The translations under genes and the position numbers were made by a program. This document shows positions 5,672 to 34,956 of a DNA stretch of 64,000 nt, piece after piece (position 1 is the first letter of the stretch; the number at the start of each line of letters is the position of its first letter). Location: positions 5,127 to 69,126 of the forward strand of contig JAGOPC010000003.1 in NCBI GenBank assembly GCA_017992195.1, written 5' to 3'. Source of the DNA: Patescibacteria group bacterium (lineage in GTDB: Bacteria; Patescibacteriota; Gracilibacteria; Absconditabacterales; Absconditicoccaceae). The notes under the pieces are model-generated. The model was not told the origin of the DNA, searched no databases, and was given only the letters and a program-made list of their open reading frames with translations.

Positions 5672-7294
5672 TTACTCGCCTTCGGCTATTATATAATTTT
5701 CTCCGCTCGCCTGATCAACGACACCATCATGCGTGATTCCTCTCATCACCTTTTTCAAAGGTTTATAACTAACCAATAATATCAAACCATTCATCACAAC
5801 TAACCAGATCGCTAACCATAGATAGTCGTTATAGGCAAATGGTCTTACATAATTTGTATACCACCATGCAGTTCCGGCAATTACGATCACCGATCCGATA
5901 AGGAGAGTGAAATACTTCCGTGAAAAAACGAGTGAAACGCGCTTCCACTTGGCAACAATTATTCAGCCAAGGAGATAGAGGAGCTCCATGAGCATCTGGG
6001 TCGCGATACCTCCGACGATGCCATATGTGGGGATCATGTAGATACCGACCGCCATGCCTATGATGACACCGATGGCGTTTACTTTGAGTAGGTGATTATT
6101 GAGACCAGTCGAGACGAACATGAAATTGTAGACCTGTTTGGCGAAGCTGAGGAGCATCGTTACGGCGAGCCGGGGCAGAATGAAATCCGAGCCAAACCCT
6201 CACGCGACAAACTGCGATAGGAACTCTTTTCAACTGACGAGATAGATGATGTTGCTATCGAATACCCGGAAGTTCGCTACAAAAACCATTCCTATTCGCA
6301 GGACAAAGAGTAGAAGACTTCCGTAGCTCTTACGTTTCAAGAGGTCTGAATATGCAGTCACCTTGTGGACGATACTGTTTCCTAGTGATGACGGAACTAT
6401 CAGTAATATCTCCATCAGTGCTGAGGCGACAGCCCGCATACCAACGTAGGCGAAGCCCGTGGCAGTGGGAAAGAAGATACCGAGCAGGATCATCACACCT
6501 AGTGTGTGCAAACTACTCAGACAATACGCCAGTCCATACTGCCGGTTATCTTTGATGATCTGCCAGGTAAATCACCAGTCGGGCTTCAAGCGCAGCTTAA
6601 TATATTTGTTACTTACTCTTCGGACATACCATCATTGCACGGCGGCGCTGGCCAATACAGAGCCAATCATTAGGAGAAACGCTCAAATAGAGTGGTTCGA
6701 TGCGACGCTGAAATCAGGATTCTTATAGAGCCAGACGATTCCGACTAATACAATAATTTGCATAATTCTTGCGAGCGACAAGCCGATGCTCACATGTTTC
6801 ATTCCCCGGAAAAGTTGAAGAGGAAGTTGTAGTATACCCGCGGCCATGAAGCTTGCCGAGAAGAGCATACCGAGCGGGAGTCCCCGGATAAGATATGGAT
6901 TGTTTGTATATGCAGGTATTAAGTACGCGATGATCAATGCTACGGCGTATACAATGGTGATAGTGACATACCTCGACATGACGAACTTGCCGTAGTAGCT
7001 TTCCATCTCGGTTTTGGCCGGTCCTTCAGGTGGCATCTCATGTTTATCGAGATTGAGTTTCATCTTATCCTTGAGGCTACCGAGTTTTTTGAGCGCGATC
7101 ACGTACAATCCGAAGTCCGCAAATGCAGACCGGATCGCAAAGTATTTCAAAATCGTCGAATAATCTCCGAATCTGAGAGGTCACAGGTATGGCGTCATTA
7201 ATTTAACAACGAGAAAACCTCCGATGGCGGAGATGATTCTTCCCAGGATCTGCCGAAAGGCGTCTTTGACTACGAGTTTATATGAGGATGTCAT
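5672..7294 (-). CDS. MOP-superfamily flippase (MurJ/Wzx-like polysaccharide/lipid II flippase)
   Basis: ORF pieces 6683..7150, 6230..6511, 5963..6157 and 5672..5890 are all in one frame and joined by TGA codons. ATG at 7294, TAA at 5672. About 540 aa, polytopic, with an N-terminus MTSSYKLVVKDAFRQILGRIISAIGGFLVVKLMT typical of this family. Confidence 0.6.
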
Positions 7295-7860
7295 AATCTT
7301 TTTTTACGGGTATAGTAGAGAATGCCTGCGAACGAGAGCGATGCCGCGACTATCATCATATAGATTAGTACGTGAAATCATAGATAGATAACTGCTAATC
7401 CTCCGATGATCGCTGCGAGTCCATTGACGATATCCTGGCTTCATTCATAAAGACCCCGCTTAAATACTTCGCTTTCTTTTGCGGTGTTCTCTTCAAGTTC
7501 TTCGTCAAATACAGGGTTTGCCATAGCATTACCTAGGCCAATAACGATCTGCGTGATTAAGAGCATTCCTACCGATGCTACGGCTAGATACATGGCAATA
7601 CCTATGAGCCGAATGAGCCGGCCACCGATCAGCAAGGCTTTCTTATGTTTCGCTGATCGCTGCATGCGGTGAATCAAGATCGTCGCCAGCCCACAGGTTA
7701 TCAGGAATATTCCCATCGCTCCTGAAGCATCAAGGATGTCGCCACCGATATTCTGTACGAAGATCGCATAGATGGGAAGTAGAATTCCTTCCGCAAAACA
7801 TGAGCAGCTATACGCATAGATCAGCAGCTTATACATTCTCATGGGACGACGTGTTTTCAT
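7270..7860 (-). CDS. Hypothetical polytopic membrane protein (MFS-half-like)
   Basis: ORF 7441..7884 reads through TGA 7441-7443, a second TGA in the SQDIV...IYL-G-FHV tail (7378-7380) and a third at 7288-7290 (RL-G-HP), ending at TAG 7270-7272. ATG at 7860 (alternative GTG at 7884). Its 3' end overlaps the flippase start by 25 nt. Confidence 0.45.
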
Positions 7861-7940: not shown

Positions 7941-9135
7941 CAGACAGTTCCTCTTCTGTGGATAAGAGTGGCCCCCCTCCATATCATTTTACTTTTTTCT
8001 TTTTTCAGGCAAGCGTTTCATAGGTCTCAGGAGGTGTGATTTCCTTGATAAGATCATTATATTCATGAGGGAAAAGAATTGTTTTGTTCAGTGAGCTTGC
8101 TTCGATTCTCTTAACTAGTTGTCTTATAGGATGATTATCGGAGGTTGCAATTCGTGATCTCTCATCCGGTGTCATAAGACTATACAGATAGACTCATAAC
8201 TCTCTCATTTCTTTCTTCCTCGATCTCTCTTTTATAAGTCTATCTTCGCCATAGAATCTTTCGCCATACTGCCAACAAATACGGTCGAATAATCCACGCT
8301 TATCCTGAAAACGACGCAGTGCTTTTTTCTTTTCTACGAGGGGAGTTTTCTCGCTCAGTATACGACGAGCTACGATGTTCTCGGTGAAAATAGTCTCAGG
8401 ATCTCTTGGGTCGATCTCATCGTGGACGTGATCTAACTTCCCAAGCATTTGTCCTACGTCTTTCATCATCCATTCCAGGATGTTATCTTTTGATTCTCAG
8501 TTTTCATAACTTTTTATCCTATTGCCGACGCTGTCATGGCCATTCTTGCGATACTTTAACTTGGTATTAAGTTTCTGCATTTGAAGCTCCGCTTTTAGTT
8601 TTGCATCTTCCGCCTGATACAATGCAGACCAATTTGCATCCTGCTTCATCTTCTCATAGACAGGATACAACAGCTCATAAAGCTCCTTCTTGCTTTCGTC
8701 TCCTGCAAGATTATCAAATGCACCCGCCAATATCCAGGTAGCCACTGTCTTTGCCTTCTTCCGCGTTGCAAAAATAGTTTTTCCTGCCTGATCGTTTCCA
8801 TATTTCGCTTCCAGTTCCTCAAGCGCTTTTCTAATCGTTCCATTGGCTGCTGTTATTTTCTCTTTTTCGGCACTTATTTGTTGTTCCAGTTTTCTCTTTT
8901 CCTCGTAAAGTTTCACAAGCTCTGCTTTGATATATGAGTCCAGATCAGCGTGCTTATAACGGTCTTGTGTAACCTTAGAAAGACACTCTGCGATGAATTG
9001 CTTAAAAGCGGAGTTGATTTTTCCTGCCTGTGAAAAATTGCCCTCCAGAAACTCATTCATTGGTAGATGAGTATTCTGAAAATTGCTTATAGCATTATAC
9101 TCATGATATCTGAGCTGAACATATTCGTCGAACAT
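7924..9135 (-). CDS. Hypothetical coiled-coil protein (about 403 aa)
   Basis: ORFs 8497..9135 and 8194..8469 plus a tail are one frame joined by TGA at 8497, 8194, 8005 and 7984. Ends at TAA 7924-7926. No family recognised. Confidence 0.55.
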
Positions 9136-9698: not shown

Positions 9699-10280
9699 TT
9701 AATGTTTGTTAAAGTATTCGTGATCTACTTCATCGAAGCTTTGTACCGGTATATATTCAATAAGCTTGCCATCATCTTCATGGTAAACTACTGCAAGAAT
9801 ATTGCCGCCTTCAATAATTTTAGGAACTCGGATTTTATCGCTCGGTCGCATCTCGTCTTCTGGTAACTTGTCACTATCGTACCACTTTGGATCTCTCATC
9901 TCGTCGCTTTCGCCATATGGCCTTGTATAATTTGTAACGAAATAGATATCGCATTCTTGGTTGTGTTTTGTCTTAGTTCTGAAGTAGAAGCGAATAGTTC
10001 ATACCTTTTGCAGATCATCTGTTGTTATGTCGACTTTTCATTCATCTTGGGATTCTCTTACTGCCGATTCTTCATTCGTTCTATCTTTTGCCGGATCTAA
10101 CTTGCCACCGAGGCCATTACGCCTTTGGAGTGAAGCATCAAATTGGTTCTGAGTAGTGACTTTCTTGTAGAGCAGTACCTGTCACTGTGGATTGAAAATA
10201 AAGACAAGATTGCTTTTCCTGAACGGGAGTTCCTCTACGCGTTTTTCCAATGATGAATAGTCGCTGCCGGGTGTGTTCAT
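9699..10280 (-). CDS. Nudix-fold paralogue with a degenerate Nudix box
   Basis: ATG at 10280. Three in-frame TGA. It shares IFNPQGQVLL and RRNGLGGK with the neighbouring Nudix gene, but the box reads GGKLDPAKDRTNEESAVRESQDEG. TAA at 9699. Confidence 0.6.
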
Positions 10281-10302
10281 AAGCGTCACGTTACTAGATA
10301 AA

Positions 10303-10569
10303 CTACTTATGACTCTTTATCCATATATTTTTTATTCGTCTGAGTCACATTGATCCTATGACAAAGCCGACCGTAGGAACGATTGCATTAAGATATCGTC
10401 TCTGGTCTCCGATGGCATACATATAGAGCCCGAGAAGTATATAGGTAATAACAGCTATTCGAAGTTTTCTTGCCAGACTAATCTCCCGAGTTTTCTCAAG
10501 TTCAACGCGGTGATTTCTGGCTTTGATAGCTTCTACATCTTTGATGAGAGAGTCGAGGTCATGGGTCAT
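10303..10569 (-). CDS. Hypothetical small membrane protein
   Basis: ORF 10345..10569 reads through TGA 10345-10347 to TAG 10303-10305. It has an N-terminal amphipathic region followed by two TM segments. Confidence 0.4.
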
Positions 10570-16052: not shown

Positions 16053-17006
16053 ATGAAGCAATCAATTAATGCCTCATGGCGTCAAAAAATCACCTCTACT
16101 ATTATGTCATTTTTCGGAAAATCTAACGATGAAACAGTGAAAGCGCTTGTAACTGAAATGACGTACGAAGACCTTTTGGAGGCTTATATTAGTAGATGAT
16201 TTGATATAACTGTAGCTGAGTCTTTTGCTAAAAGAGATGTTTTGAAGCAGCGCTTGCAAAGTAAGCAGGGAAAAGAAGAGCTGATCGCATCAAAGAGAAA
16301 AGAAGAAAAGAGGAAACAAGAAGAAGAACAAAAAATGCTTGAAGATAAAGAAAGATATAATTCTCATGTGCTTTCCAAGGAGAAGAGTGATGAGTACATG
16401 CAGCAATTCTTACAGATACATGAGCTTTTACAAAACGCTTATCTTATTGATAATCGTACTAGTGGACAGAGGTCTTACGATAAGATTATTTTTGAGACGA
16501 TGATAAGAGACAAGAATATACAGGTGGATATACTATTTGATGCCAACTTCTCCACGTTCGAAGGAAATCAAGTATATAAACGTAGAAAATGAATCAATTA
16601 TGGTATTGATGCTCAAAACTATTCTGTCAAGAATTATATTGATATTGAACATTCTTTGATGAATAAGGTTTATGAGAACGTTGGACTTTTCGCTATAGGT
16701 AGTCTCCCTAGCTCGGGTGAAATTATTCTCGATCGTGTATGTCTGGAACAGGATGGAAGAGGAGATGTCTATGGAAGAGTGAATAAAATGAAGTATGTGA
16801 ATGCAAACGGTAACAATAGACAGGAGCAGTATAGATGACTCTATCCTGAAGAGCTTGTGATGCTACTGATTATGGATGGAACGTTGACGCTTGAAAATGT
16901 GAAAAAGAAATTAGAAGAGCTGATGCAAAAGCAGTTAGATGATTTACAGAGAACCCTTGACGAGACCGATGAAAAAATAAAAAAGCTCTCAGGAGAGATC
17001 TCATAA
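16053..17006 (+). CDS. Hypothetical coiled-coil protein (317 aa)
   Basis: ATG at 16053. ORFs 16242..16592 and 16656..16838 share one frame, joined via TGA at 16197-16199, 16590 and 16836. TAA at 17004-17006. Confidence 0.5.
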
Positions 17007-23027: not shown

Positions 23028-23843
23028 TTATACAAAGGCTTTCCCTATCTTTTCTTTCATGGTTTTTGCGTGCTGAGGAGAGTGGATGAGCTTGAGCGTG
23101 CAGGGAGTCTTCATCTTGATCAGCTGATAGAAGAACTCTTTTTTATATCATTCTAGATTCAGGATCGTCTGAAAGAAGAGCGTGAAGTTTTCTGTGATAA
23201 TCTTCGGGAAACTGCATTCGATAATATAGTCGCCGATAATATCGACCATGTAACCTTCCTCAGGAAAGGGTGAGTTGTCGGTGCAGACGGTTGTATAGAG
23301 TTTGTTATTTAAAATTTGTGATCCATATCTATCCAGATAATGAGTATTGCCGATAAGCATATAGGCATGCTCAAGTCAGCGCGCGATCTCCTCCATCGTT
23401 GCTTGCTCTTTTTGCGGAGCGCTGAGCAGATAGTAAGGATGCGATGAGTAGTGGTAGCTCACAGAGCATGGGTATATTTTGACGAGCTGACCGAGAAGAT
23501 CACTACGAATAATATTCAGATCGTGCAGATTGGCCTCAGTCCAGCTTTCCTGCTGGCCGACGGCAAGCTTTGCAATCGGGCTGTCCTGGTTCTCATTGAG
23601 ATGTCTTTGTATCCCATCAACCAGTCCCGCTATGTAGCGACTGAAGATCGAATGGATCTGTAGCTTGCCGTGTGGTCTTATTAGTATCTGGTCGTCGACC
23701 ATGTGTGCCACTATTTTATAAAAATTCGGTAAAGATACCGAAATTCATTTTGTGCAGACCTGTTGGTACAGCTCTTGCACGGACAAATTTTTGTACTTTG
23801 CAACTACGTCAATAATGGCGTAATTCACGCTTGTGTGGAACAT
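23028..23843 (-). CDS. Hypothetical wHTH-like protein, paralogue A
   Basis: ATG at 23843. Pieces joined via TGA at 23748-23750, 23376 and 23148. TAA at 23028-23030. Colinear with paralogue B (shared LPNFYKIV, YNSHPY/YSSHPY, NMEEI/TMEEI, PFPEEGY, IIGDYIIEC, HSP.HAK.MK.KI). Confidence 0.6.
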
Positions 23844-23996: not shown

Positions 23997-24815
23997 CTAA
24001 GAGAAGAACTTTTTGATTTTTTGTTTCATCTTTTTCGCGTGTTCAGGGGAGTGGATTACTTTGATACTGCACGTGTCTTTCATCTTGATAATATGTCCGA
24101 ACATCTGGACGTTGAAAGTATCAAGAGAGTTCACCGTATCAAAGAAGATCTGATAATGCTGGGCCACGCTTTGAGGTAGCGTACATTCGATAATATAATC
24201 TCCGATGATATTGATAAAGTAGCCTTCTTCCGGAAATGGAACATCATCGCTGCACTTTATCGTGTAGCCTTTCATGCTGTAGAGTGTGCTGCCGTACTGG
24301 TCCAGAAAGGTTGTATTTCCAAAGAGAAAGTATGATTTTTTTAGGCCGCTTCCTATCTCTTCCATGTTGGCCTTTTCTTTGTCGGTGATACTGAGAACAT
24401 GATACGGGTGAGAGTTATAGTAGAATCCTTCAGCATCAGGATATTTTTTTATCAGCTGCGTAAGAATATCCATCCAGATAACATCAAGATCGTACAAGCT
24501 TGACGCGCTAAAGGTTTGCTGGTCGCCCGCCTGCAGGGTCTCGACATTGTGTGTGGCGTTTGAAAAATAAGTCTTTTGCACATTCTCTGCGAGTTTGACG
24601 ATGAAGTGAAGATACATCGTGTGGATATGAAGTCTTCCTTTTGTTTTCACAAGTACCTGACTGTCAATCATACGTCCTACTATCTTATAGAAGTTAGGGA
24701 GGGAGACTTTCAGGTTTTTGCCGTTAGTGACGGAGGCATACAACTCCTGCACAGTGATGTCTTTTTGCTCGGCGAGCGCTGCGATAATGGCGTACTCAAT
24801 ACGGATACTAAACAT
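23997..24815 (-). CDS. Hypothetical wHTH-like protein, paralogue B
   Basis: Start placed at MFSIRIEYAIIAAL (24815) by homology with paralogue A; the ORF-track start at 24881 is probably too far upstream. TAG at 23997. Confidence 0.6.
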   Translation of the reverse strand: MFSIRIEYAIIAALAEQKDITVQELYASVTNGKNLKVSLPNFYKIVGRMIDSQVLVKTKGRLHIHTMYLHFIVKLAENVQKTYFSNATHNVETLQAGDQQTFSASSLYDLDVIWMDILTQLIKKYPDAEGFYYNSHPYHVLSITDKEKANMEEIGSGLKKSYFLFGNTTFLDQYGSTLYSMKGYTIKCSDDVPFPEEGYFINIIGDYIIECTLPQSVAQHYQIFFDTVNSLDTFNVQMFGHIIKMKDTCSIKVIHSPEHAKKMKQKIKKFFS

Positions 24816-24843
24816 AATGCATATTATACAGATAAAACGGGTA

Positions 24844-24881
24844 TTATCAAAACTTGATAAAAATATTATATTTTTTATCAA
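24844..24881. promoter_or_regulatory. Palindromic operator-like array TTATCAA-N3-TTGATAA-N14-TTATCAA
   Basis: Half-sites at 24844-24850, 24854-24860 and 24875-24881, in the divergent spacer between paralogue B and the AdoMetDC-like genes. TTGATAA recurs at 25354-25360. Confidence 0.45.
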
Positions 24882-24886
24882 ATCTG

Positions 24887-24914
24887 TTGCAAGGCGAAAT
24901 ATATTAGCTATAGT
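24887..24914 (+). promoter_or_regulatory. Predicted promoter TTGCAA-N16-TATAGT
   Basis: -35 at 24887-24892, -10 at 24909-24914, ATG at 24962. Confidence 0.5.
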
Positions 24915-24961: not shown

Positions 24962-25336
24962 ATGGAGAAAGATAAACTGGTGCATCACCACTTTCTTTAC
25001 TATTGCGTCGTAGGACGTGACATGAATACGTGAGGAACAACAAGACAGCTATTGGAAGAATATCTTTCGAGTCTTGTTGTTTTTCTAAATATGAGAAAAA
25101 ACAAGAAGATAGCTCTCACACACAATACTCGCTCTCATATATGGACGGGGAAGATTTTCGATGGAGGAGTGCATGCGATCGTTCATTACTTTGCTGGCGA
25201 TAATACTGTGCAGGTTGATGTCTATAGTGCTTCTTCTTACTGCAAAGATCGTCTCAGACAGCTTTGCAATCTTTTCCGAAAGCCGCAGAAAGAAGATTTT
25301 TTTTCGTTATGCAAGCATACACCGGAAATTCTATAA
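24962..25336 (+). CDS. AdoMetDC-fold (SpeH/SpeD-like) protein, catalytically degenerate
   Basis: HHHFLYYCVVGRD... and ...DGGVHAIVHYFAGDNTVQVDVYSAS align to the SpeH block ..ESH.TIH.FPE.G...IDVYTC. The Glu-Ser pyruvoyl-forming site is replaced by Gly-Gly and the Cys is lost. One TGA at 25031-25033. Confidence 0.45.
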
Positions 25337-25387
25337 TACAGCTATTATCCATACTTGATAAAAAATGGCTATAGTTTGCTAAATAAA

Positions 25388-25415
25388 TTGCAAACCACTC
25401 ATGAAAACATAGACT
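25388..25415 (+). promoter_or_regulatory. Predicted promoter TTGCAA-N16-TAGACT
   Basis: -35 at 25388-25393, -10 at 25410-25415, ATG at 25440. Confidence 0.45.
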
Positions 25416-26490: not shown

Positions 26491-26934
26491 CTAATAATGA
26501 TACTCCTTCCCTTCAATAATACTCTTACTCCTATAGACTTGCTCTAGCAGCGTGAGTTTTGCCAACCCATGCGGGAGGGTGATGTTTCAGAAAGCGATCT
26601 TGTTGTTTATGACGTTGTCGAGTTTTTCTTCATTAAGACCATAAGGTCAGCCGATGATGAAGGTGACAGTGTTTTCGTCCTGGACGATCTTGGTCATGTC
26701 TGGCGTGTCGCATTGTTTGCCGTCCTTGGATAGCAGGACTTTATAGTTTTGATCTTTTTGAAGCTTTTCGATGAGTTTATCGGTCTCTTTGTCGATGATC
26801 TGGTCGCGATTTCCGTTCTTTTCTGGTTTTACGGAAATAATCTCGAGATCTCTCCCCAGTCTTTTGACGTATTCTTCGATAGCTGTCGAGAAATGTTTGT
26901 CGCTATCGGAAATGCATAAAATCTTTATTTTCAT
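26491..26934 (-). CDS. rlmH: 23S rRNA (pseudouridine1915-N3)-methyltransferase RlmH (SPOUT)
   Basis: MKIKILCISDSDKHF..EEYVKRL. TFIIG-G-PYGL (TGA at 26647-26649). ...AF-G-NITLPHGLAKLTLLEQVYRS...YH. TAG at 26491. Confidence 0.85.
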
Positions 26935-26983: not shown

Positions 26984-28489
26984 ATGAAATTCTACGACAA
27001 AGTAAAAGTGACATTCCAGTCTGGTAAATGAGGAGACGGAGTAGTTTCCGCGCGCCGCGAATCAGGCGTGCCATTCGGTGGGCCATCAGGTGGAAACTGA
27101 GGAACAGGAGGTTCCGTTGTTTTGCGTTGATCAAAAGATGTGAACACATTGATAGATTTCAGGTACCTGAAAACCTTTGCTGCCGATAAGGGAGAGCCGG
27201 GCAGAACGAAGGATCAGTATGGAAAAAATGCCGAAAATCTCGTGCTTTTACTACCGGTGGGAACTATCGTTCGTGATGTCCAGAGTGGACACGTACTGTA
27301 CCAGTTTTTGAAAGACGGCGATGAGTTTGAGGTCTGCCATGGTGGACAGTGAGGTATCGGTAACATGCATTTTAAGAATGCCTCAAATCAGTATCCCCAA
27401 TTTGCCCTCGTCGGTGAGCCGGGCGAAGCCAGAGAAGTTGAGCTTGAACTACAGCTCCTTGGAGACGTTGCGCTGATCGGAACGCCAAGCGTCGGAAAGT
27501 CCTCGCTCATCAACGCTATCAGCAATGTAAAGGCGAAAGTCGCTGACTATCCGTTTACGACGCTGATCCCAAATTTAGGGTCTGTAAAACATCGTGACTT
27601 TACGTTTAACGTCGTCGATGTGCCGGGTCTGATCGAAGGAGCGAGCGAATGAAAAGGTCTTGGTAACGACTTTCTGCGCCACATATTAAAAGCGTCCGTT
27701 TTCGCATTCGTGATCGATGCATCACGTTACGAACAGGGAATAGAGGAGTTCGGCAAGCTATGCGATGAGATCACTCACTATATGCGTGAGACGTTTATGC
27801 AAAGCCGCGACTTCGGTAGCGAGATCACAGGTGTCAAATTTCAACTGAAGAAAGAGAACGGAAAATTATTCCTACAGGTTCACGCAACGATAGGCGGGGA
27901 GCAGAAGATACTGATGGAAAAGATGATGATGGTCTTGCTCAATAAGGCCGACATTCTTGATGATGCTGAGGTGATTGCTGAATACACAACTCACTTTATG
28001 AAACATGCTCAGGAGTATCTCAAGGGAGCTTTCGGTGTCAAGATCGATAAAGATGAGATGCCCATATTCATCGTCTCTGCCATCGCGCAAACAGGGCTTA
28101 CAGAGTGGCTAGATTTGATCCAGCACTACTTACAATACGACAGAGATCATACATCTCTGCTTCTTTTCGATATCGTTCCCATCGCGGATAAACCGGTTGG
28201 CCACATTCGCGAGGTGACCGCTGAAACACTCCCATGGCTGGTTGAAAACCTCTATGTAGAGCAGCTCGATGTCAAATATGCCAAGGTCCGAGAGGTCGCA
28301 GATGCAGAGTTCTGCCGCTTAGCGTACATGCTGCCATGGGGAAATGACGAGGCCGAACTTCGGTTCCGAAATGTCATGTCGAAAAAACGTTTTGTCGCAA
28401 AGCTCGAGACAGCCGGCCTCGTCAAAGGCGACATCATCAAGATTAAGTCGTTGTATAATGGCTTGCCTGACAGATTTATTAGATATTAA
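26984..28489 (+). CDS. obg: GTPase Obg/CgtA
   Basis: MKFYDKVKVTFQSGK-G-GDGVVSARRE..GGPSGGN-G-GTGGSVVLR-G-S.. ..HGGQ-G-GIGN, P-loop GTPSVGKSS, DVPGLIEGASE-G-KGLGN, NKAD. Pieces 27140.., 27365.. and 27710..28489 share one frame. Confidence 0.92.
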
Positions 28490-28528: not shown

Positions 28529-29074
28529 ATGACGGTTCTCAAACAAAACACATCACTACAACAAAAAAGTATACCACTCATGGAAGAACTAAAGAATGTA
28601 GTCTACATTGTTATAGATCAAGGAATACCTTGCGACGTGAATTATGAAGAACTCTACTGGGATTCTGAAATAATATACGTTTATTGCAGGGATGTCTCTG
28701 TAACAATTAAATCATTTAGCGGAGATACAAAACAGTGCCAACTGTTTTCCTTCACAAAGTTGCCTCAAGCGATTACTAGTGGTAAAAACTATCACAGTAA
28801 GATCAAAAAGATGAGCGCTATGATGTCTAAAGTGCTGGCGAATCTACGCAATAAGTTCATTATTTGGACTTTTGCAATTAAAGTAGATCATATCGGTACC
28901 TACATACAATTCATGCACTCTCTTGAGACGCGAGGTAAAAAACTTATTTTTCATCTTTCGGCAGCTGATGTGGAAACACTCACTAACGATGCGCTCTTCG
29001 CTTCTATCAGTCGGCGGTATGTGAATGAAGGTACAGTAAAATTTCAACAACTGGAAGCACCTTCCGTTAATTAG
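28529..29074 (+). CDS. Hypothetical protein
   Basis: 181-aa uninterrupted ORF followed by a strong terminator. No family recognised. Confidence 0.5.
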   Translation: MTVLKQNTSLQQKSIPLMEELKNVVYIVIDQGIPCDVNYEELYWDSEIIYVYCRDVSVTIKSFSGDTKQCQLFSFTKLPQAITSGKNYHSKIKKMSAMMSKVLANLRNKFIIWTFAIKVDHIGTYIQFMHSLETRGKKLIFHLSAADVETLTNDALFASISRRYVNEGTVKFQQLEAPSVN

Positions 29075-29113
29075 ATTTGGCAAATTTGGTAAAATTTATT
29101 ACTAACATCAACC

Positions 29114-29140
29114 GGAAGCAGAATCTGCTTCCTTTTTTTT
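29114..29140 (+). terminator. Intrinsic terminator
   Basis: Perfect 8-bp stem GGAAGCAG/CTGCTTCC with loop AAT, then T8. Confidence 0.8.
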
Positions 29141-29144
29141 ACGC

Positions 29145-29560
29145 AAAAAAAATCCTCAGCAGACGCCGAGGAGCTTTTTAAGGGAAAGAGGTATACATCG
29201 TCAACATACATGGACAATAACGTTCATATATCTTCATATAATCATCGTGTATTGTTGTGATATATCGCTTGTGTGGTCTGATTGCTCAGAGCAACTTGCA
29301 GATATAATATCTGTGGTTTAGACAGATATAACGTTGTGGTGCATATCCTTCTCCCTAGGAGAGACACTGTCACACAGAGCCAAGCTCGCAGATCTGAATG
29401 AGGGGTTTGATCCTCAGGGTCAAAAGTGGTTTGATAGAGGGCTTAACACGGCCTATAGACAACTCTATGGCTTAATGTATTAAGTTTTTCTTTATCATAT
29501 ATGTGGCAATGTCTGTCTTAGGCAGAAAGACGCTAACTCCTTTTAATGACCTTATTGTAT
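29145..29560 (-). ncRNA. Candidate structured non-coding RNA (about 415 nt), family unknown
   Basis: Bounded by a consensus promoter (29566-29594) and an intrinsic terminator (stem CCUCGGC/GCUGAGG, loop GUCU, U8; 29145-29172). All frames are dense in TAA/TAG. There are several local hairpins, for example ATATCTGT/ACAGATAT. Confidence 0.5.
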
Positions 29561-29565
29561 GTCTT

Positions 29566-29594
29566 ATTATATCTCATCTCTCGCTTTTTGTCAA
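29566..29594 (-). promoter_or_regulatory. Consensus sigma70 promoter TTGACA-N17-TATAAT
   Basis: -35 at 29589-29594 and -10 at 29566-29571 on the minus strand. Both hexamers are perfect with a 17-nt spacer. Confidence 0.65.
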
Positions 29595-29664
29595 ATTTTC
29601 ACCCCAAAATCATTCATTTAACGTCAAATGACATCAAAACGGCTTAAAATCAATATTTTTTTAC

Positions 29665-29692
29665 AAAAAATTCCCCCTTATTTGGGGGAATT
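29665..29692 (-). terminator. Intrinsic terminator of gene 29715..30143
   Basis: Stem TTCCCCC/GGGGGAA with loop TTATTT. A6 on the plus strand gives a U-run on the minus transcript. Confidence 0.7.
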
Positions 29693-29714
29693 ACAAAAAC
29701 AAGAACATTGCTAA

Positions 29715-30143
29715 TTAGGGGCTGGTGGACTTGTGAGTCATCTTATAAGTGCCCGGAATTTCCGAATGCTTATCAAGGTGTCTGAGGAAAAGTCCTCCAC
29801 CCAAACCCACAATGAGCATACCGCATGTACAGCTTGTAAACTGATGGGAGCCTATAAGGTTGAAGAGCCATAGTAATACTATGCTTGCCATCATTGATGA
29901 GAAGGCGCTCAGCCAGATAATCTGCCAGGTCTTCTTGCCTATGCCAGTAAGGCAGAGGGCGGCAAGGCAAAATGCTCCGATGATTGAGCCGCCGCTCGTC
30001 CATTTCTCGGCTGGAGTGTAAAGAGTTGGGTGTTGACCATACATGTGAGCGTTAGTCTGGGTCCACCATGGGCCGGCTGCGTAGCTGATGTTGCTAATGA
30101 TCGTGAGCATTATAATGCTCGTGAATGAGATAAGTTTTTTCAT
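29715..30143 (-). CDS. Hypothetical membrane protein with signal peptide
   Basis: 142 aa. MKKLISFTSIIMLTIISNISYAAG, followed by three TM segments. TAA at 29715. Confidence 0.5.
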   Translation of the reverse strand: MKKLISFTSIIMLTIISNISYAAGPWWTQTNAHMYGQHPTLYTPAEKWTSGGSIIGAFCLAALCLTGIGKKTWQIIWLSAFSSMMASIVLLWLFNLIGSHQFTSCTCGMLIVGLGGGLFLRHLDKHSEIPGTYKMTHKSTSP

Positions 30144-30204
30144 ATTTTTTTCTTTTAGTAGTCAGATTGTAGTGGGAAGAAGGGGAAAGTCAATATTTAA
30201 CCAA

Positions 30205-30237
30205 TAAAAAAAGAGTGCTTATTTCTTCAGCACTCTC
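30205..30237 (-). terminator. Intrinsic terminator overlapping the rlmN stop codon
   Basis: Stem AGAGTGCT/AGCACTCT. A-run on the plus side. Confidence 0.55.
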
Positions 30238-31400
30238 AAATTTTTCCCTGTCGACTTGATCTCTTCGCGATGCTCGTAGACCTTTTCGTAGCCCAGTTGA
30301 CCGCAGGCTCATTTGACGCCGCGACCGAGAGTGTCTCTGACGGTGACGGTGACGCCACCTGCTTCGAGGATGTCTTTAAATCTCATGATTTGATTGCGGC
30401 TTGGTTCTTCGAGGTCGATGGCAGGATTTTCGTTGTAGGGGATGAGGTTTATATGTGAATGGGCTGGTCTTGCCTTCAATAGATCTATTAATTCATATGC
30501 TAGTTCTGGCTTATCTGTCTTCCCTTTGATCATGATATACTCGTAGAAAACTGTCTTGCCGGTCTTGGTAGTATACTCATCTATCTGGGCCATAAGTTTG
30601 TCGAGCGTATACATTTTGGTGATGGTTGGAATGAGTTCAGCACGGAGCTCCTGGTTTGGTGCGTGAAGTGATAATGCGAGCATGACGTCGAGGTTGTCAT
30701 CAATCATCTTTTGGATTCATGGAATAATTCCACTTGTAGAGATAGTAACGTGGCGGCGTGAAAGTGAGAAGCCGTTTTGGTCGAGGAGGTAGTGGACGGT
30801 TTTTTTGACGTTATCGTAGTTGAGAAGTGGCTCACCCATACCCATGAAGACGATATTACGGATAGAGTATCGTGAGTTGTCTTCTTTTTTGCCGAGTTTT
30901 TTCTTGAGGTAGGCGTTTGCGTAGAGGACCTGGCCGACGATCGTTTGGACGTCGAGGTTTTTGAGAAGTCATAATTTGCCCGTAACGCAGAAGATACATC
31001 CGACGGAACACCCGACTTGTGACGAGATACATAAGGTGAGACGGTTCAATTTTTTGCCGTCAACGAGGGTAGTGAATCATTTCTTATATTCCTCAGAGTC
31101 TTCGATAATTTCGTGATAATGGAACATTATTACAGACTCAATAACGTTGCCATCCGGGAGTTCAAAAAGGAACTTTGTGGTGTCCTCAGACTCCTGCATC
31201 TCTTTGAGGGCGAATGGGATGATAGAAAAATTATCCTCAAGCGACTGCCTGAGGTCTTTGCTGAGCGCTGTCATCTCCTGAAAGTCGACCACTGCGTTTT
31301 TGAAGATCTCATGAAAGATCTGCTTAATACGGAATGGTTGGACCTTGTTGGCTGCTCTTCGCTCTTCGAGTTTCTCTGTATCAAAAATAGAGGCTTTCAT
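30219..31400 (-). CDS. rlmN: Dual-specificity RNA methyltransferase RlmN (radical SAM)
   Basis: Pieces 31077..31400 and 30309..30707 plus the segments between them share one frame via five TGA codons. Cluster motif [20 protein letters not shown], then GMGEPLLN, then ...LGRGVK-G-ACGQL. TAA at 30219. Confidence 0.88.
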
Positions 31401-31441: not shown

Positions 31442-32455
31442 TTACAGCTGTTTTTCTATCTCTGTATTGATCTCAGCGGCGAGCTTTGGGAGTTGTGCGA
31501 TGAAGTCTGCTTCGAGATTTGTCTTGCAGCCGGCTGCAAACATATGTCCGCCGCCGCCAAAATGTAGCGCCAGCTTTTGGACGTCGATTCTTTTGCCGTT
31601 TGACATGAAGCCTGATCTGAGAGAGATACCTATTTTGTCATCAGTTCATTTTCTGAGGATCGCTATCACGGGGATAGCTTTTAGGGGTCTCAGATATGAG
31701 AGGAGAATGATATCAGCCTCGTCTTTATCAAATCATAATTTCTCTATCTCTTCGACAGTATACCGAGCGTAGCATACATGCTTATCACGAGTTATCCTCG
31801 GTATCATCATCTTCGAAAGTTCTATCGACGATCGTTCGCTGTTGTTGAAAATGTTCTGTATGATCCATGGCTTATTTGCACCGAGTTTGATCATGCCCAT
31901 GGCATTGCTCATCGTTCTGATAGAGTCTTTTTCATACTGAAAGTTTCCTGTATCTGTCGTAAGACCGAGATACCAGTAGGTCGCTATTTCAGCATCGATC
32001 AGCTCTGGCCGGATCTCTTTCGAGATCTCATAAAGAAGTTCTGCACAACTTGCTGCGTCTGCGTCCTTGAGCATAAGAGTATTAACGGGTGTTTCATCAC
32101 CTAGATGATGATCGATCGTCAGCTTGTCCTTTGCATTGAAATACTCCTCATGTCATGATGTAATCTTTCCTATGCGATGATAGCCAGTGAAGTCGACAAA
32201 GATGATGAGATCCCAGCTGTCAGCATAGTCAAAATCAATTCTGATCTTTCCGATTTCCGGTAAAAACTGATACGATCTGCCTGGTGTAGACGTGGTAAAC
32301 AGTCCAACATTCTTCCCAAGTTTCTCGCATATTTTTCCCCATCAGAGCAGGCATCCTACCGCATCGCCGTCGACGCTTTCATGGCTGAAGATAGCAATGT
32401 TCTTTGCTCCATTCATCTTTTCTTTACATGCGTTGAGTAGTTCGTTTGAAAACAT
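31442..32455 (-). CDS. nrnA: DHH/DHHA1 phosphoesterase (NrnA-type oligoribonuclease/pAp phosphatase)
   Basis: ATG at 32455. SHESVDGDAVGC, TIDHHLG, GGGGHMFAAG. One frame through TGA at 32342-32344, 32153-32155, 31733 and 31646-31648. TAA at 31442. Confidence 0.8.
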
Positions 32456-32478: not shown

Positions 32479-34956
32479 TTATTTTGTGATGAGTCCTTTT
32501 TCGATGAGGAATTTTGCCAAGTCTCCAAAGAGTCTTCCTGCTGTATACTCACCGTACTGGCTTGATCTTGGTCTGCGGACGTGGATAACGACGATGTATT
32601 TGAGATCGTCTCTGGTGACCATGCCGACGAATGAGCCGTCTGTCCAGCCTGGTCCGCTCATATATTTTCCTTTGAAGGCGATCTGCGATGTTCCTGTTTT
32701 TCCTCATAATGTATAACCTGGCACTCCGTATTTTTTTGTCAGCCCTCTGTACACAACCTGGAAGAGGAGATCTCTGATCTTGTCGCTTGTCTCGGGTTTG
32801 ATGATCTGGCTGCCGATCTTTGGCTGATTGATCACGAACTCTTTGGTCGCAGGGTCGTAAATTTTGTCGATGATGGTTGGTTTCACCATGTGACCGCCAT
32901 TGACCAGAGCGCTGTATCCGGCCGCGACCTGAACCGGTGTTGCAAGCATACCCTGACCGAACGCATTATTATAGAACTGTGCAACAGGGATATTGTTTGG
33001 TCATTCGATCCTTCCTTTTTCTTCGCCGGCAAGCTCGATGCCTGTTGGTTTTCCAAATCAAAATTTATCCATATAATTATAGAAGATTTCCTTTCCTATT
33101 TTTTTCGCGATACCAACCATACCTACGTTACATGAAAATATTACGGCATTTATCAGCGGGTGGGTGCCGCCGCAGTTTTTCTTGTCGGCGTTGTTGATAA
33201 GCTGAATAAGGCCATTTCCGATGTCTAGTTTGAGCTGGTTATTGTCTGTATAATAATCGTATAAACTGACTTCATCACTATCGAGTCCCATTGCCATGGT
33301 GAATGGTTTGATGATCGATCCCGGTTCGTATGACTGCGCGATATTCTTATCGATAAATACCTGTGCCCCCATTTTATTGACAGCAATATACTTTTCGAGT
33401 GATGCGTCTTTCCTCTGTTCGTAGGTCGTGGGAACGATCTTTTCACCGGAAAGATAAAAGACAGGCACGTCTCTATAGGTGTCGTTGTCGACGATGATAC
33501 TTTCCGTAAGACTTAAGGGTTTGAGCTGATATGCGGTCTGGTAGTTGTTCGGGTCGAATGACGGGTAGTTTGCTGAGGCGATGATCTTACCATTGTAGGG
33601 ATCCATAATCACTGCTGAGATGCCGTCTGCGTCGAACTCCTTCGTGTAGTACTCTTCGAGCTGTTCAAGCTTCTTTTGGATCATGGGGTCGATCGTCAGA
33701 TAGATGTCGCGACCATCCGTTGGCTGTGTTATAGCTATGTCATTCGATGCGATCTGACCGAGCAGAGGAGTCGAAAGCCCTCTGATCTCACCAGCTTTTC
33801 ATTTAAGAACCTGATCAAAGTACTGTTCAACGCCGTAGAGGGCGTAACCGTCTTTCGTATAAAAACCTAAGAGATTCGCTGCGAAATTTCAGTAGGGGTA
33901 ATATCTGGTCTCATTTTTTTCCAGACCTACGCCATGGAGTAGCGGAATACCTGCCACGCATCCATTTCCCTGTTTGTCACAGGTGCTCTTAATAGTATAG
34001 TTTGTATTGATCAGGTCGTTCACCTCTTTTGCCAGCGTCGCATTGAGTCCATCTCCCAGTTTTACGTATCTGTTCTCCTGTTGGGTGAACAGGTTGCTGA
34101 TCTGCTGCTCGGAGTATGCATATCCATATTTCATCAATATGTCTGAGATCTGCTGTCTCGCTGCGACGATATTTCAGACCCTCGCAGGGATAACATAGAC
34201 GTAATGCTTGTTTTCTATCGTCACATAAGGCAGATCAAGTCACGAGAATTCGCTGAGAAATGCATCGTTCTCAAAGTATCCTATATAATTCTTTTCTTTG
34301 ATTCCGATCGAGATCTTATTGTCTAATGTGCTTTTGATCAGGTTCATCGCTTGCTCACCTGAGAAGGCCTGCATGATCTTGATCCTTTCCTGATCAATCT
34401 CGCTGTTCTGGACAATGATCTGCTGTTGCATCAGATTGATGCCAGTAGTCGATCCGTAGTTATCGCCGAGAGTTTCTCTGGTATAGAAGACCATCTTGGG
34501 TTTCGGTAATATCTGCATTTGTGCAAAACGTTCTATATTTTCAACACAGCCGAGTTTATCAACATGATTCAGGCCGTTTGTTTCACAAAGGTGTTTATAG
34601 AGGATAGGGGCGAGGATGTCGATCACTCTGGGTTTATCTCGGACAAATTTCGGATCGACGAAGAGGTTGTAGACCTCGACATTTTGCGTCAGTGCGATCG
34701 GTTTGTTGCTCTGGTCGGTCACATACACGTTTCCTCTTTTTGCTTTGATGTTCACCGCATTGAAATGCTGGGCGGTTAGTACGTCACTATATGTTCTGGC
34801 TTGCAGAACCTGTAAGTAGAAAAGTCTGACCACCACGATCACGAATAACGCAGAAAGAACCCAAAGGAGCTGTGCTTCTCTGGTTACTTTTCTTTTGCCG
34901 AGGCCAAACTTTTCGCGTATTTTCTGAGTGAGTGCGTGTCTTTTCTTGAGGATCAT
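32479..34956 (-). CDS. Class B penicillin-binding protein (PBP2/FtsI-type transpeptidase)
   Basis: Five ORF pieces (34240..35037, 33889..34137, 33058..33684, 32704..32949, 32479..32661) share one frame. N-terminal TM anchor. SxxK = SIIK, SxN = SCN, KTG = -G-KTGTS. Start chosen at MILKKRH (34956). Confidence 0.85.

Follow-up and report, generated by a model that had tools for sequence, protein, structure and literature searches.

A 64,000-nucleotide (nt) stretch of contig JAGOPC010000003.1 from a Patescibacteria group bacterium, referred to here as the window, very likely contains a real gene for a new family of large structured noncoding RNA (ncRNA), located at 29145..29560 on the minus strand, downstream of obg. 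The locus shows the general features of a structured ncRNA gene: a conserved promoter and terminator, conservation across species and covariation above that of controls. An earlier reading of the same sequence (the original prediction) had left two alternatives, a highly divergent housekeeping RNA or a new structured RNA. Conservation, compensatory base changes, the lack of a coding signature and the absence of any match in Rfam 15 support the second. As a whole the original prediction was partly confirmed: its transcription signals and hairpins stood, but its statement on open reading frames (ORFs) and one of its coordinates did not.

The RNA gene is an independent unit, consisting of an upstream terminator, a consensus sigma-70 promoter, the RNA and an intrinsic terminator. 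The promoter, TTGACA-N17-TATAAT at 29594..29566 on the minus strand, had been described as perfect and as the best in the window. Indeed, when the window was scanned with the pattern TTGACA-N16-18-TATAAT, it was the sole match at all 12 of 12 positions, where shuffled sequences predict 0.02. The start of the RNA at 29558-29560 is deduced from the -10 hexamer, and the 3′ end is placed in the U-tract. The clean intrinsic terminator expected about 415 nt downstream was located as an 8-base pair (bp) G+C-rich hairpin, TCCTCGGC-GTCT-GCTGAGGA at 29172..29153, followed by T8 at 29152..29145. On the promoter side, the gene at 29715..30143 (minus strand) has its own terminator at 29692..29669. On the other side, the convergent gene at 28529..29074 (plus strand) has a terminator at 29114..29132; this terminator and the one that ends the RNA stand back to back. 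Positions of the elements are collected in Table 1.

Homologues of the RNA were not detected by nhmmer and blastn in 80 rlmN loci of GTDB species representatives; in the nearest of these species, RlmN is only 49-57% identical to that of the window. Used as search anchors, the 181-amino acid (aa) neighbour of the RNA returned no homologue besides itself and the 142-aa neighbour returned the same organism only, at an identity of at least 99.8% (three Logan assemblies and GCA_020049695.1). Contigs from closer relatives were obtained through graded RlmN and Obg relatives from a large protein collection. The resulting comparative set comprises seven sequences in two clades, five close copies including that of the window and two distant ones (L103 and L101). 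The first close homologue (L088; GCA_030429145.1, RlmN 88%) was found by nhmmer with E = 1.7e-36 in the same rlmN-obg gap and is 585 nt long. The second (L093; complete genome OZ246420.1, RlmN 93%) was found by blastn with E = 1e-28 and measures 606 nt; rlmN-obg synteny is broken in this genome, and the RNA still adjoins obg. An exact-pattern scan of JGI metagenome contigs with the most conserved block, GCGAGCTTGGCTC-N4-8-GACAGTGTCTC, gave a copy of 478 nt (L105; L104 is partial) on a contig too short to show its genomic position. The remaining close copy, 670 nt long, lies between rlmN and obg in SRR24908177, where contigs L106 and L099 were joined via a 28-nt overlap.

The distant clade was reached with a covariance model of the 5′ domain (D1) that was run without filters. 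The first match was reported in L102 and read in the identical L103 (19.6 bits, E = 0.003 in 86 kb; Obg 53%), where the RNA is convergent with obg. The score of L101 (Obg 56%) is weak, at 10 bits and E = 0.79, and its homology is suggested by the alignment with L103 and by common motifs. In both, the RNA has a TTGACA-N16-TAATAT promoter and is found on the downstream side of obg, in convergent orientation, and its elements are collinear with those of the close copies, with an extra 3′ extension. A 15-nt block of the distant clade is also identical to L093, and the order of UGAGCAAUCA, UAUAUGAAG and GAUGUAUACC in these RNAs is that of the window. The RNAs of L103 and L101 are the longest, at ~745 and ~845 nt, and that of the window is the shortest, at ~415 nt, a twofold range among the seven copies.

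The signals that delimit the gene are conserved along with it. All five close copies have a perfect TTGACA-N17-TATAAT promoter, in which both hexamers and the 17-bp length are constant and the sequence of the spacer is different in each homologue. Each of them ends in its own distinct G+C-rich hairpin and U-run. L101, too, has a G+C-rich hairpin of its own and a U-run at this place; in L103 the hairpin is no more than terminator-like and the U-run is poor. The constant context is a position downstream of obg, in convergent orientation, among relatives whose Obg is 53-79% identical to that of the window. At the matching sites of L085, L090 and L092 (rlmN), of L096 and L097 (obg) and of L001-L004, no copy of the RNA was detected. 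As far as the available loci show, it appears confined to a sub-clade of Absconditabacterales.

Table 1. Positions of the predicted RNA gene, its elements and nearby genes (window coordinates unless another locus is named; 5′ and 3′ refer to the RNA)
Feature	Position	Strand	Remark
-35 hexamer TTGACA	29589..29594	-	identical in four close and two distant homologues
-10 hexamer TATAAT, 17-bp spacer	29566..29571	-	hexamers and spacer length kept in five close copies
Predicted RNA, ~415 nt	29145..29560	-	from promoter and terminator geometry
G1 purine tract AAAAGGAG	29537..29544	-	in 5′ leader; pairs with T2 in minimum free energy (MFE) fold
P1 5′ strand	29500..29530	-	RNAalifold and pair counts; helix kept in distant clade, five compensatory pairs
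T1, basal 12 nt of P1 5′ strand	29519..29530	-	UCUUUCUGCCUA
P2 5′ strand	29490..29497	-	one pair changed on both sides, 95% of cells paired
P2a hairpin UAGA-GUUG-UCUA	29456..29467	-	stem invariant in five close copies; loop GUUG/GUAG
P2 3′ strand	29432..29439	-	
P3 5′ strand	29420..29428	-	two pairs changed on both sides
P3a hairpin UGAGG...CCUCA	29399..29416	-	in close copies stem invariant, loop length variable
P3 3′ strand	29389..29397	-	
P4 hairpin GAGC-UUG-GCUC	29377..29387	-	invariant in five close copies
P1 3′ strand	29346..29376	-	most conserved block of the RNA
G2 'guide', basal 12 nt of P1 3′ strand	29346..29357	-	UAGGGAGAAGGA, purine
H5 hairpin AUAUCUGU...ACAGAUAU	29307..29329	-	RNAalifold and pair counts
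GNRA domain	29267..29299	-	outer helix and hairpin UCUGA-GCAA-UCAGA at 29277..29290
H9 hairpin UAUAU-GAAG-AUAUA, then UGAAC	29227..29240	-	UGAAC conserved; block conserved in all copies
T2 pyrimidine-rich 3′ element CCUCUUUCCCUUAAAAAG	29174..29191	-	directly 5′ of terminator; mimics T1
Intrinsic terminator	29145..29173	-	stem-loop 29153..29172 and U8 29145..29152
rlmH	26491..26934		intact only with TGA as sense
obg	26984..28489		intact only with TGA as sense
rlmN	30219..31400		intact only with TGA as sense
DHH phosphoesterase gene	31445..32455		intact only with TGA as sense
Penicillin-binding protein gene	32479..34956		intact only with TGA as sense
156-168-aa family gene, L088	8650..9120		
156-168-aa family gene, L093	7296..7772		
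156-168-aa family gene, L099	6670..7140		
156-168-aa family gene, L104	95..601		

Compared with shuffled sequences, the window RNA is predicted to fold with z = -6.2 as a whole and z = -5.1 when the terminator is left out. The consensus fold was built from RNAalifold and pair counts. MAFFT alignment of the distant with the close copies is unreliable inside D1, and a covariance-model alignment together with a pairwise fold of L101 and L103 was used for these. In the resulting model, D1 (29343..29530) is a junction of P2 (with P2a), P3 (with P3a) and P4, closed by P1, a helix of 22-28 bp. It is followed by the hairpin H5, a domain with a GNRA tetraloop, a 3′ domain with H9, the pyrimidine-rich element T2 and the terminator. 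Hairpins H6 and H7 and lineage-specific inserts are present in relatives, not in the window, which in this comparison carries a minimal version of the family. Two of the hairpins had been named in the original prediction. The TGAGG/CCTCA stem near 29399-29417 corresponds to P3a, and the 8-bp ATATCTGT/ACAGATAT stem is H5, a real hairpin that had been placed at 29313-29335, about 6 nt away from its actual site.

Several helices change in sequence and keep their pairing. P3 is fully rewritten yet paired in L103 and L101, and in the same two RNAs P3a reads UAAGG/CCUUA, a G-C to A-U replacement. In L103, P4 becomes GAGU...ACUC (C-G to U-A). H5 of L093 carries two adjacent compensatory pairs, GU/AC to AC/GU. 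The GNRA loop is GCAA, GCGA or GUGA in the close copies; 2 of the 10 pairs of this domain are compensatory, and in L101 its hairpin, CUUGA-GCAA-UCAAG, differs by two compensatory pairs. Near H9, the block UAUAUGAAG is found in L101 as well. L101 and L103 have a like D1 architecture with 12 compensatory pairs between them.

Covariation across related loci, a check that the original prediction had proposed, exceeded both shuffled and slid controls. In D1 and H5 (five sequences), 95.3% of the cells are paired and 10 of the 68 pairs are changed on both sides; shuffles gave 3.8±1.4 such pairs, with 0 of 500 reaching the observed count, and slid controls gave 0-3. In H6 and H7 (four sequences), all cells (100%) are paired and 6 of the 13 pairs are compensatory, against 2.8±1.0 in shuffles (3 of 500 as high) and 0-2 in slid controls. 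Pair counts of this kind, drawn from a few related sequences, are supportive rather than proof. The strand was assigned from the orientation of the promoter and terminator and from the pattern of G·U pairs (24 G·U cells versus 10 A·C cells, which favors the minus strand); thermodynamics is not decisive. A candidate 11-nt receptor for a GAAA tetraloop was rejected: although CCUAAG occurs, the strand facing it is not UAUGG, none of the loops is GAAA and the distant clade does not keep the motif.

Could the locus instead be a small protein-coding gene or a decayed pseudogene, read on either strand with TGA as sense? The original prediction had stated that no ORF exists in any frame even under this code, which proved incorrect: reading TGA as sense opens stop-to-stop frames of 123 codons (29071..29442, minus strand) and 114 codons (29093..29437, plus strand). 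Its conclusion that the locus is noncoding holds for other reasons. In the minus-strand frame, ATG first occurs close to the end, and the coordinates of this frame place both terminators inside it. The homologues conserve neither frame. Indels in the best-conserved 230 nt of the five close copies measure 1, 2 and 4 nt, and in these copies the variable columns are distributed 35/30/24 over the codon phases, with no codon periodicity and no third-position bias. Six-frame translations of the homologues show equal likeness in all frames, in short blocks only, and in the homologues the short AUG-started peptides that follow the purine block are either different or absent. The compensatory changes within helices also speak against coding, which is thus extremely improbable; by its pattern of change, the locus behaves as an RNA, not as a protein.

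A second explanation is a very divergent RNase P RNA, transfer-messenger RNA (tmRNA), signal recognition particle (SRP) RNA or 6S RNA that the Rfam models miss. The size is within the range of RNase P RNA and tmRNA, the gene has its own strong promoter and terminator, GNRA tetraloops and a multi-helix junction are present, and none of these RNAs was found elsewhere in the window. The Rfam 15 search that the original prediction had suggested for these families and for the large ornate RNAs covered the whole window and 12 related loci at gathering score and, at E<10, the locus itself together with three homologues. At gathering score there was no match in the window or the 12 loci. At E<10, window positions 28950..29800, L088, L093 and L101 gave only chance-level matches to microRNA, small nucleolar RNA and leader models. 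RNaseP_bact_a and RNaseP_bact_b matched neither at gathering score nor at E<10 (window, L088, L093 and L101), and the same holds for the OLE, ROOL, GOLLD, HEARO and raiA models. ARAGORN found neither transfer RNA (tRNA) nor tmRNA in the 64-kb window, and no tmRNA, standard or permuted, in it or in 13 related loci.

Motif scans agreed with the models; the original prediction, too, had failed to find signatures of these four RNAs. The RNase P P4-pseudoknot motifs CR-I (GAGGAAAGUCC) and CR-V (ACAGAAnnnGGCUUA) are absent from five homologues with 2-3 mismatches allowed. There is no conserved T-loop-like sequence of the tmRNA T-arm type (GGUUCGAAUCC), with non-conserved two-mismatch matches in three copies only. 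The SRP domain IV motif (GGAAGCAGCC-type, GNRA-capped helix 8) is absent from the five homologues, and no Rfam SRP model matched at E<10. For 6S RNA there is no Rfam match, and the predicted fold is a multi-helix junction with further domains over ~415-845 nt, not the ~180-nt rod of 6S RNA, whose large central bubble imitates an open promoter. The four copies that gave no Rfam match at E<10 are of different lengths, whole domains are lost in the window copy, and the RNA is missing at the syntenic site in L096 and L097. Its similarity fades within one order, unlike that of universal RNAs, whose cores remain recognizable. The housekeeping alternative is thus not supported by the motifs, the models, the twofold length range or the distribution; it is already largely refuted and very unlikely. 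A riboswitch or leader does not fit either: the RNA has its own terminator and the next gene, 28529..29074, is convergent on the other strand, as it is in L088 and L093.

The most specific clue to how a new structured RNA of this kind may act is a three-way complementarity. G2, the purine-rich basal part of the P1 3′ strand, has exactly two best complements in all seven RNAs, T1 on the opposite strand of P1 and T2 beside the terminator. In the distant clade G2 is UUAAUCGAAAGA, T1 is UCUUUCGAUUAA and T2 is UCUUUCGACUAA, all three changed together. T2 outscores shuffled tails (3′ halves) in 176-200 of 200 trials per RNA. The leader adds a further partner: a purine tract comparable to G1 is present in 5 of the 7 RNAs and could pair with T1 or T2. 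G1 resembles a ribosome-binding site and is not taken as one because no start codon follows it. Two nested folds can thus be drawn, state A with T1:G2 and G1:T2 and state B with G1:T1 and G2:T2, whose predicted energies are 0-5 kcal/mol apart in the five RNAs with G1. In view of the joint variation of G2, T1 and T2, a strand-exchange switch, or the same pairing between molecules, is proposed; this switch or assembly mechanism is a tentative suggestion, possible but not the likelier outcome. G2/T1/T2 exchange is nevertheless the best-supported mechanistic lead that the sequences suggest. In this scheme G2 would pair alternately with T1 or with T2 beside the terminator, which would result either in a switch between the two nested folds or in a contact between two molecules, and G2:T2 complementarity is compatible with homo-oligomeric assembly.

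Two other roles for these elements were considered. A pyrimidine-motif triple helix between T2 and P1 was rejected, since the strands in L101 and L103 are not homopurine and homopyrimidine, yet Watson-Crick complementarity is kept. Mimicry of Shine-Dalgarno and anti-Shine-Dalgarno sequences is probably not the explanation, being weakened by the near absence of such sites in the host: of 62 window genes, only 3 carry GGAG, GAGG or AGGA in the 20 nt that precede the start codon.

The same scarcity bears on a further reading, a large base-pairing regulatory RNA like Staphylococcus RNAIII, in which T2 would be the seed for purine-rich sites in messenger RNAs and G2 an internal mimic or competitor of the target sites. 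T2 lies just 5′ of the terminator, a frequent place of small RNA (sRNA) seeds, and is unpaired in several MFE folds. G2 looks like a purine-rich ribosome-binding site, and the gene has a strong, stand-alone promoter and a terminator. With so few Shine-Dalgarno sites among the window genes, however, these are not an obvious target class, and the joint change of T1, T2 and G2 between clades is more in keeping with pairing inside the RNA than with conserved external targets. A seed-carrying sRNA would also need neither a 190-nt junction domain nor GNRA hairpins. A regulatory RNA of this type is therefore rather unlikely.

T1 and T2 are also direct repeats that flank most of the RNA, with 14 of 17 nt identical in L101, and the genes on both sides are swapped between relatives. 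This would be expected if the RNA belonged to, or was a remnant of, a mobile or defence element, with T1 and T2 as insertion repeats (a target-site duplication, or att-like) and the neighbouring genes as cargo. Against this, no recombinase, reverse transcriptase, nuclease or cas gene is near any copy examined, and the locus stays downstream of obg across the relatives. The phage, plasmid and IMG/VR collections gave no match to the RNA, which is present in one copy per locus and nowhere else in the window. Repeats tying the locus to the rest of the window, such as a template/variable repeat like that of a diversity-generating retroelement or an arrangement like that of an insertion sequence, were not found. 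Moreover, T1 and T2 are complementary to, and co-vary with, the internal G2, a constraint at the level of the RNA, and a mobile origin is highly improbable.

Some observations weigh against a conserved structured RNA with exchanging strands. The opposite strand folds nearly as well (z = -5.6). The five close copies are akin, which inflates covariation statistics based on shuffles, and P2a, P3a, P4 and most of P1 never vary among them. The assignment of the distant homologues combines modest covariance-model scores (19.6 and 10 bits) with synteny and collinear motifs. Fairly close relatives, L096 and L097, lack the RNA at the obg-adjacent site, and in other relatives it was not found beside rlmN or obg; the window copy, being devoid of H6 and H7, may be a decaying one. 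As for the switch, it is complementarity that suggests it; the MFE fold is state A in 6 of the 7 RNAs, and in the two copies that have no G1, state B lies 10-13 kcal/mol above state A. The transcript, its ends and its abundance are likewise all deduced from the DNA.

If a new family of structured RNA is indeed encoded here, the RNA would be abundant, since every close copy keeps a perfect promoter. It would work in trans as a folded RNA, as a scaffold, a component of a ribonucleoprotein or an RNA-only assembly. Large, intricately folded bacterial RNAs of unassigned function are rare, and earlier examples opened up new biochemistry, among it ribozymes, RNA-only nanocages and ribonucleoproteins of the membrane. 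The genomes of Absconditabacteria measure ~1 Mb and use an altered genetic code, and the group is known for living as predators or episymbionts. That so small a genome retains a 0.4-0.85 kb RNA behind a perfect promoter makes an important role in the cell likely. The family offers a natural minimal version, the window copy, and a testable structural hypothesis, the pairing of G2 with T1 or T2. If true, a strand-exchange RNA would point to a self-assembling RNA, a new ribozyme or the core of a ribonucleoprotein, not to a simple regulator.

The host context was examined through the surrounding genes. The housekeeping genes around the locus are intact only when TGA is read through, and the closest named relatives of their proteins are from 'Candidatus Absconditabacterales' or candidate division SR1; Absconditabacterales/SR1 decode TGA as glycine (code 25). 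Shine-Dalgarno-like motifs are nearly absent from the 62 window genes, and the leaders are A-rich, for example CTAAAAGAAAAAAATATG at 30144..30158.

The gene between obg and the RNA is, as the compared loci indicate, exchanged among relatives. In the window it is 28529..29074 (plus strand), whose 181-aa product is 57% identical to the neighbour of obg in L097 (7621..8100); L097 has this homologous neighbour, yet no RNA at that site. In L097, the position that the RNA takes in relatives (8240..8640, minus strand) holds two small, very acidic ORFs of ~42 and ~51 aa, followed by a terminator. An unrelated family of 156-168-aa proteins adjoins the RNA in four other loci and is absent from the window, L103 and L101. 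Neither family of intervening genes matches Pfam. The 156-168-aa family was considered as a partner of the RNA and set aside, as it has no Pfam match and is present in only 4 of the 7 RNA loci. The gene on the promoter side differs too: in the window, 29715..30143 (minus strand) encodes a 142-aa predicted membrane protein, and in L088 a gene on the strand opposite to that of the window (7214..7843, minus strand) encodes a 209-aa N_methyl (pilin-like) protein. In L101, an annotated gene at 9870..10517 (plus strand) lies across the RNA homologue, which is encoded on the other strand; the annotation is probably erroneous.

Elsewhere in the window, a recurrent module (repeat family D1), in which AAATAAAAAAA precedes a G+C-rich palindrome, occurs at 17005, 19234, 20423, 25983, 37761 and 52904. 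These modules appear to be bidirectional terminators between convergent genes. Two adjacent genes on the minus strand, 23028..23843 and 23997..24815, each of ~270 aa, have a common 71-nt stretch of 75% identity (repeat D2) and are probably tandem paralogues. Repeated upstream regions were also seen at 24832..24892 and 25333..25393.

Among known systems, the RNA can be compared with four kinds. Like RNase P RNA and tmRNA, it belongs to the same size class, with a stand-alone gene between promoter and terminator, a multi-domain fold and GNRA loops; unlike them, it is negative for their motifs and models and is not universal even among close relatives. Analogous to RNAIII-type RNAs, it is ~0.5 kb long, with many hairpins, its own promoter and terminator and pyrimidine-rich single-stranded elements. 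It differs from RNAIII in having no conserved peptide and no homology, its pyrimidine elements co-vary with an internal partner, and its host, unlike that of RNAIII, hardly uses Shine-Dalgarno sites. Two-state switches such as riboswitch platforms and attenuators provide another parallel, as G2 has two exclusive conserved partners, T2 lies beside an intrinsic terminator and G1 permits, in five of the seven copies, two nested folds of similar predicted energy. In contrast to these switches, there is no downstream gene on the same strand, the next gene being convergent; T2 lies outside the terminator stem, the size of the RNA goes far beyond that of a leader and no aptamer family matches.

The fourth kind comprises OLE, ROOL, GOLLD and the raiA motif, which also are several hundred nt long and encoded by stand-alone genes. 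Many helices supported by covariation, GNRA loops and lineage-specific inserts are shared with these ornate RNAs, as is high expression, implied here by the promoter. The differences are that the RNA does not match their Rfam models, that its host lineage is Absconditabacterales, that it is neither accompanied by a protein gene such as oapA nor linked to prophages or tRNA clusters, and that its known distribution is much narrower. From these comparisons, the predicted RNA counts among the orphan large structured bacterial RNAs and falls outside every known family. That it represents a new Absconditabacterales-specific class of large ornate RNA, acting through a G2 that swaps T1 and T2 within or between molecules, is a speculative proposal, held with low confidence. 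OLE, ROOL and GOLLD assemble into homo-oligomers made of RNA only, in which some pairs between molecules initially came to notice as covariation (PMC12286853); this provides a precedent for G2:T2 as a contact between molecules.

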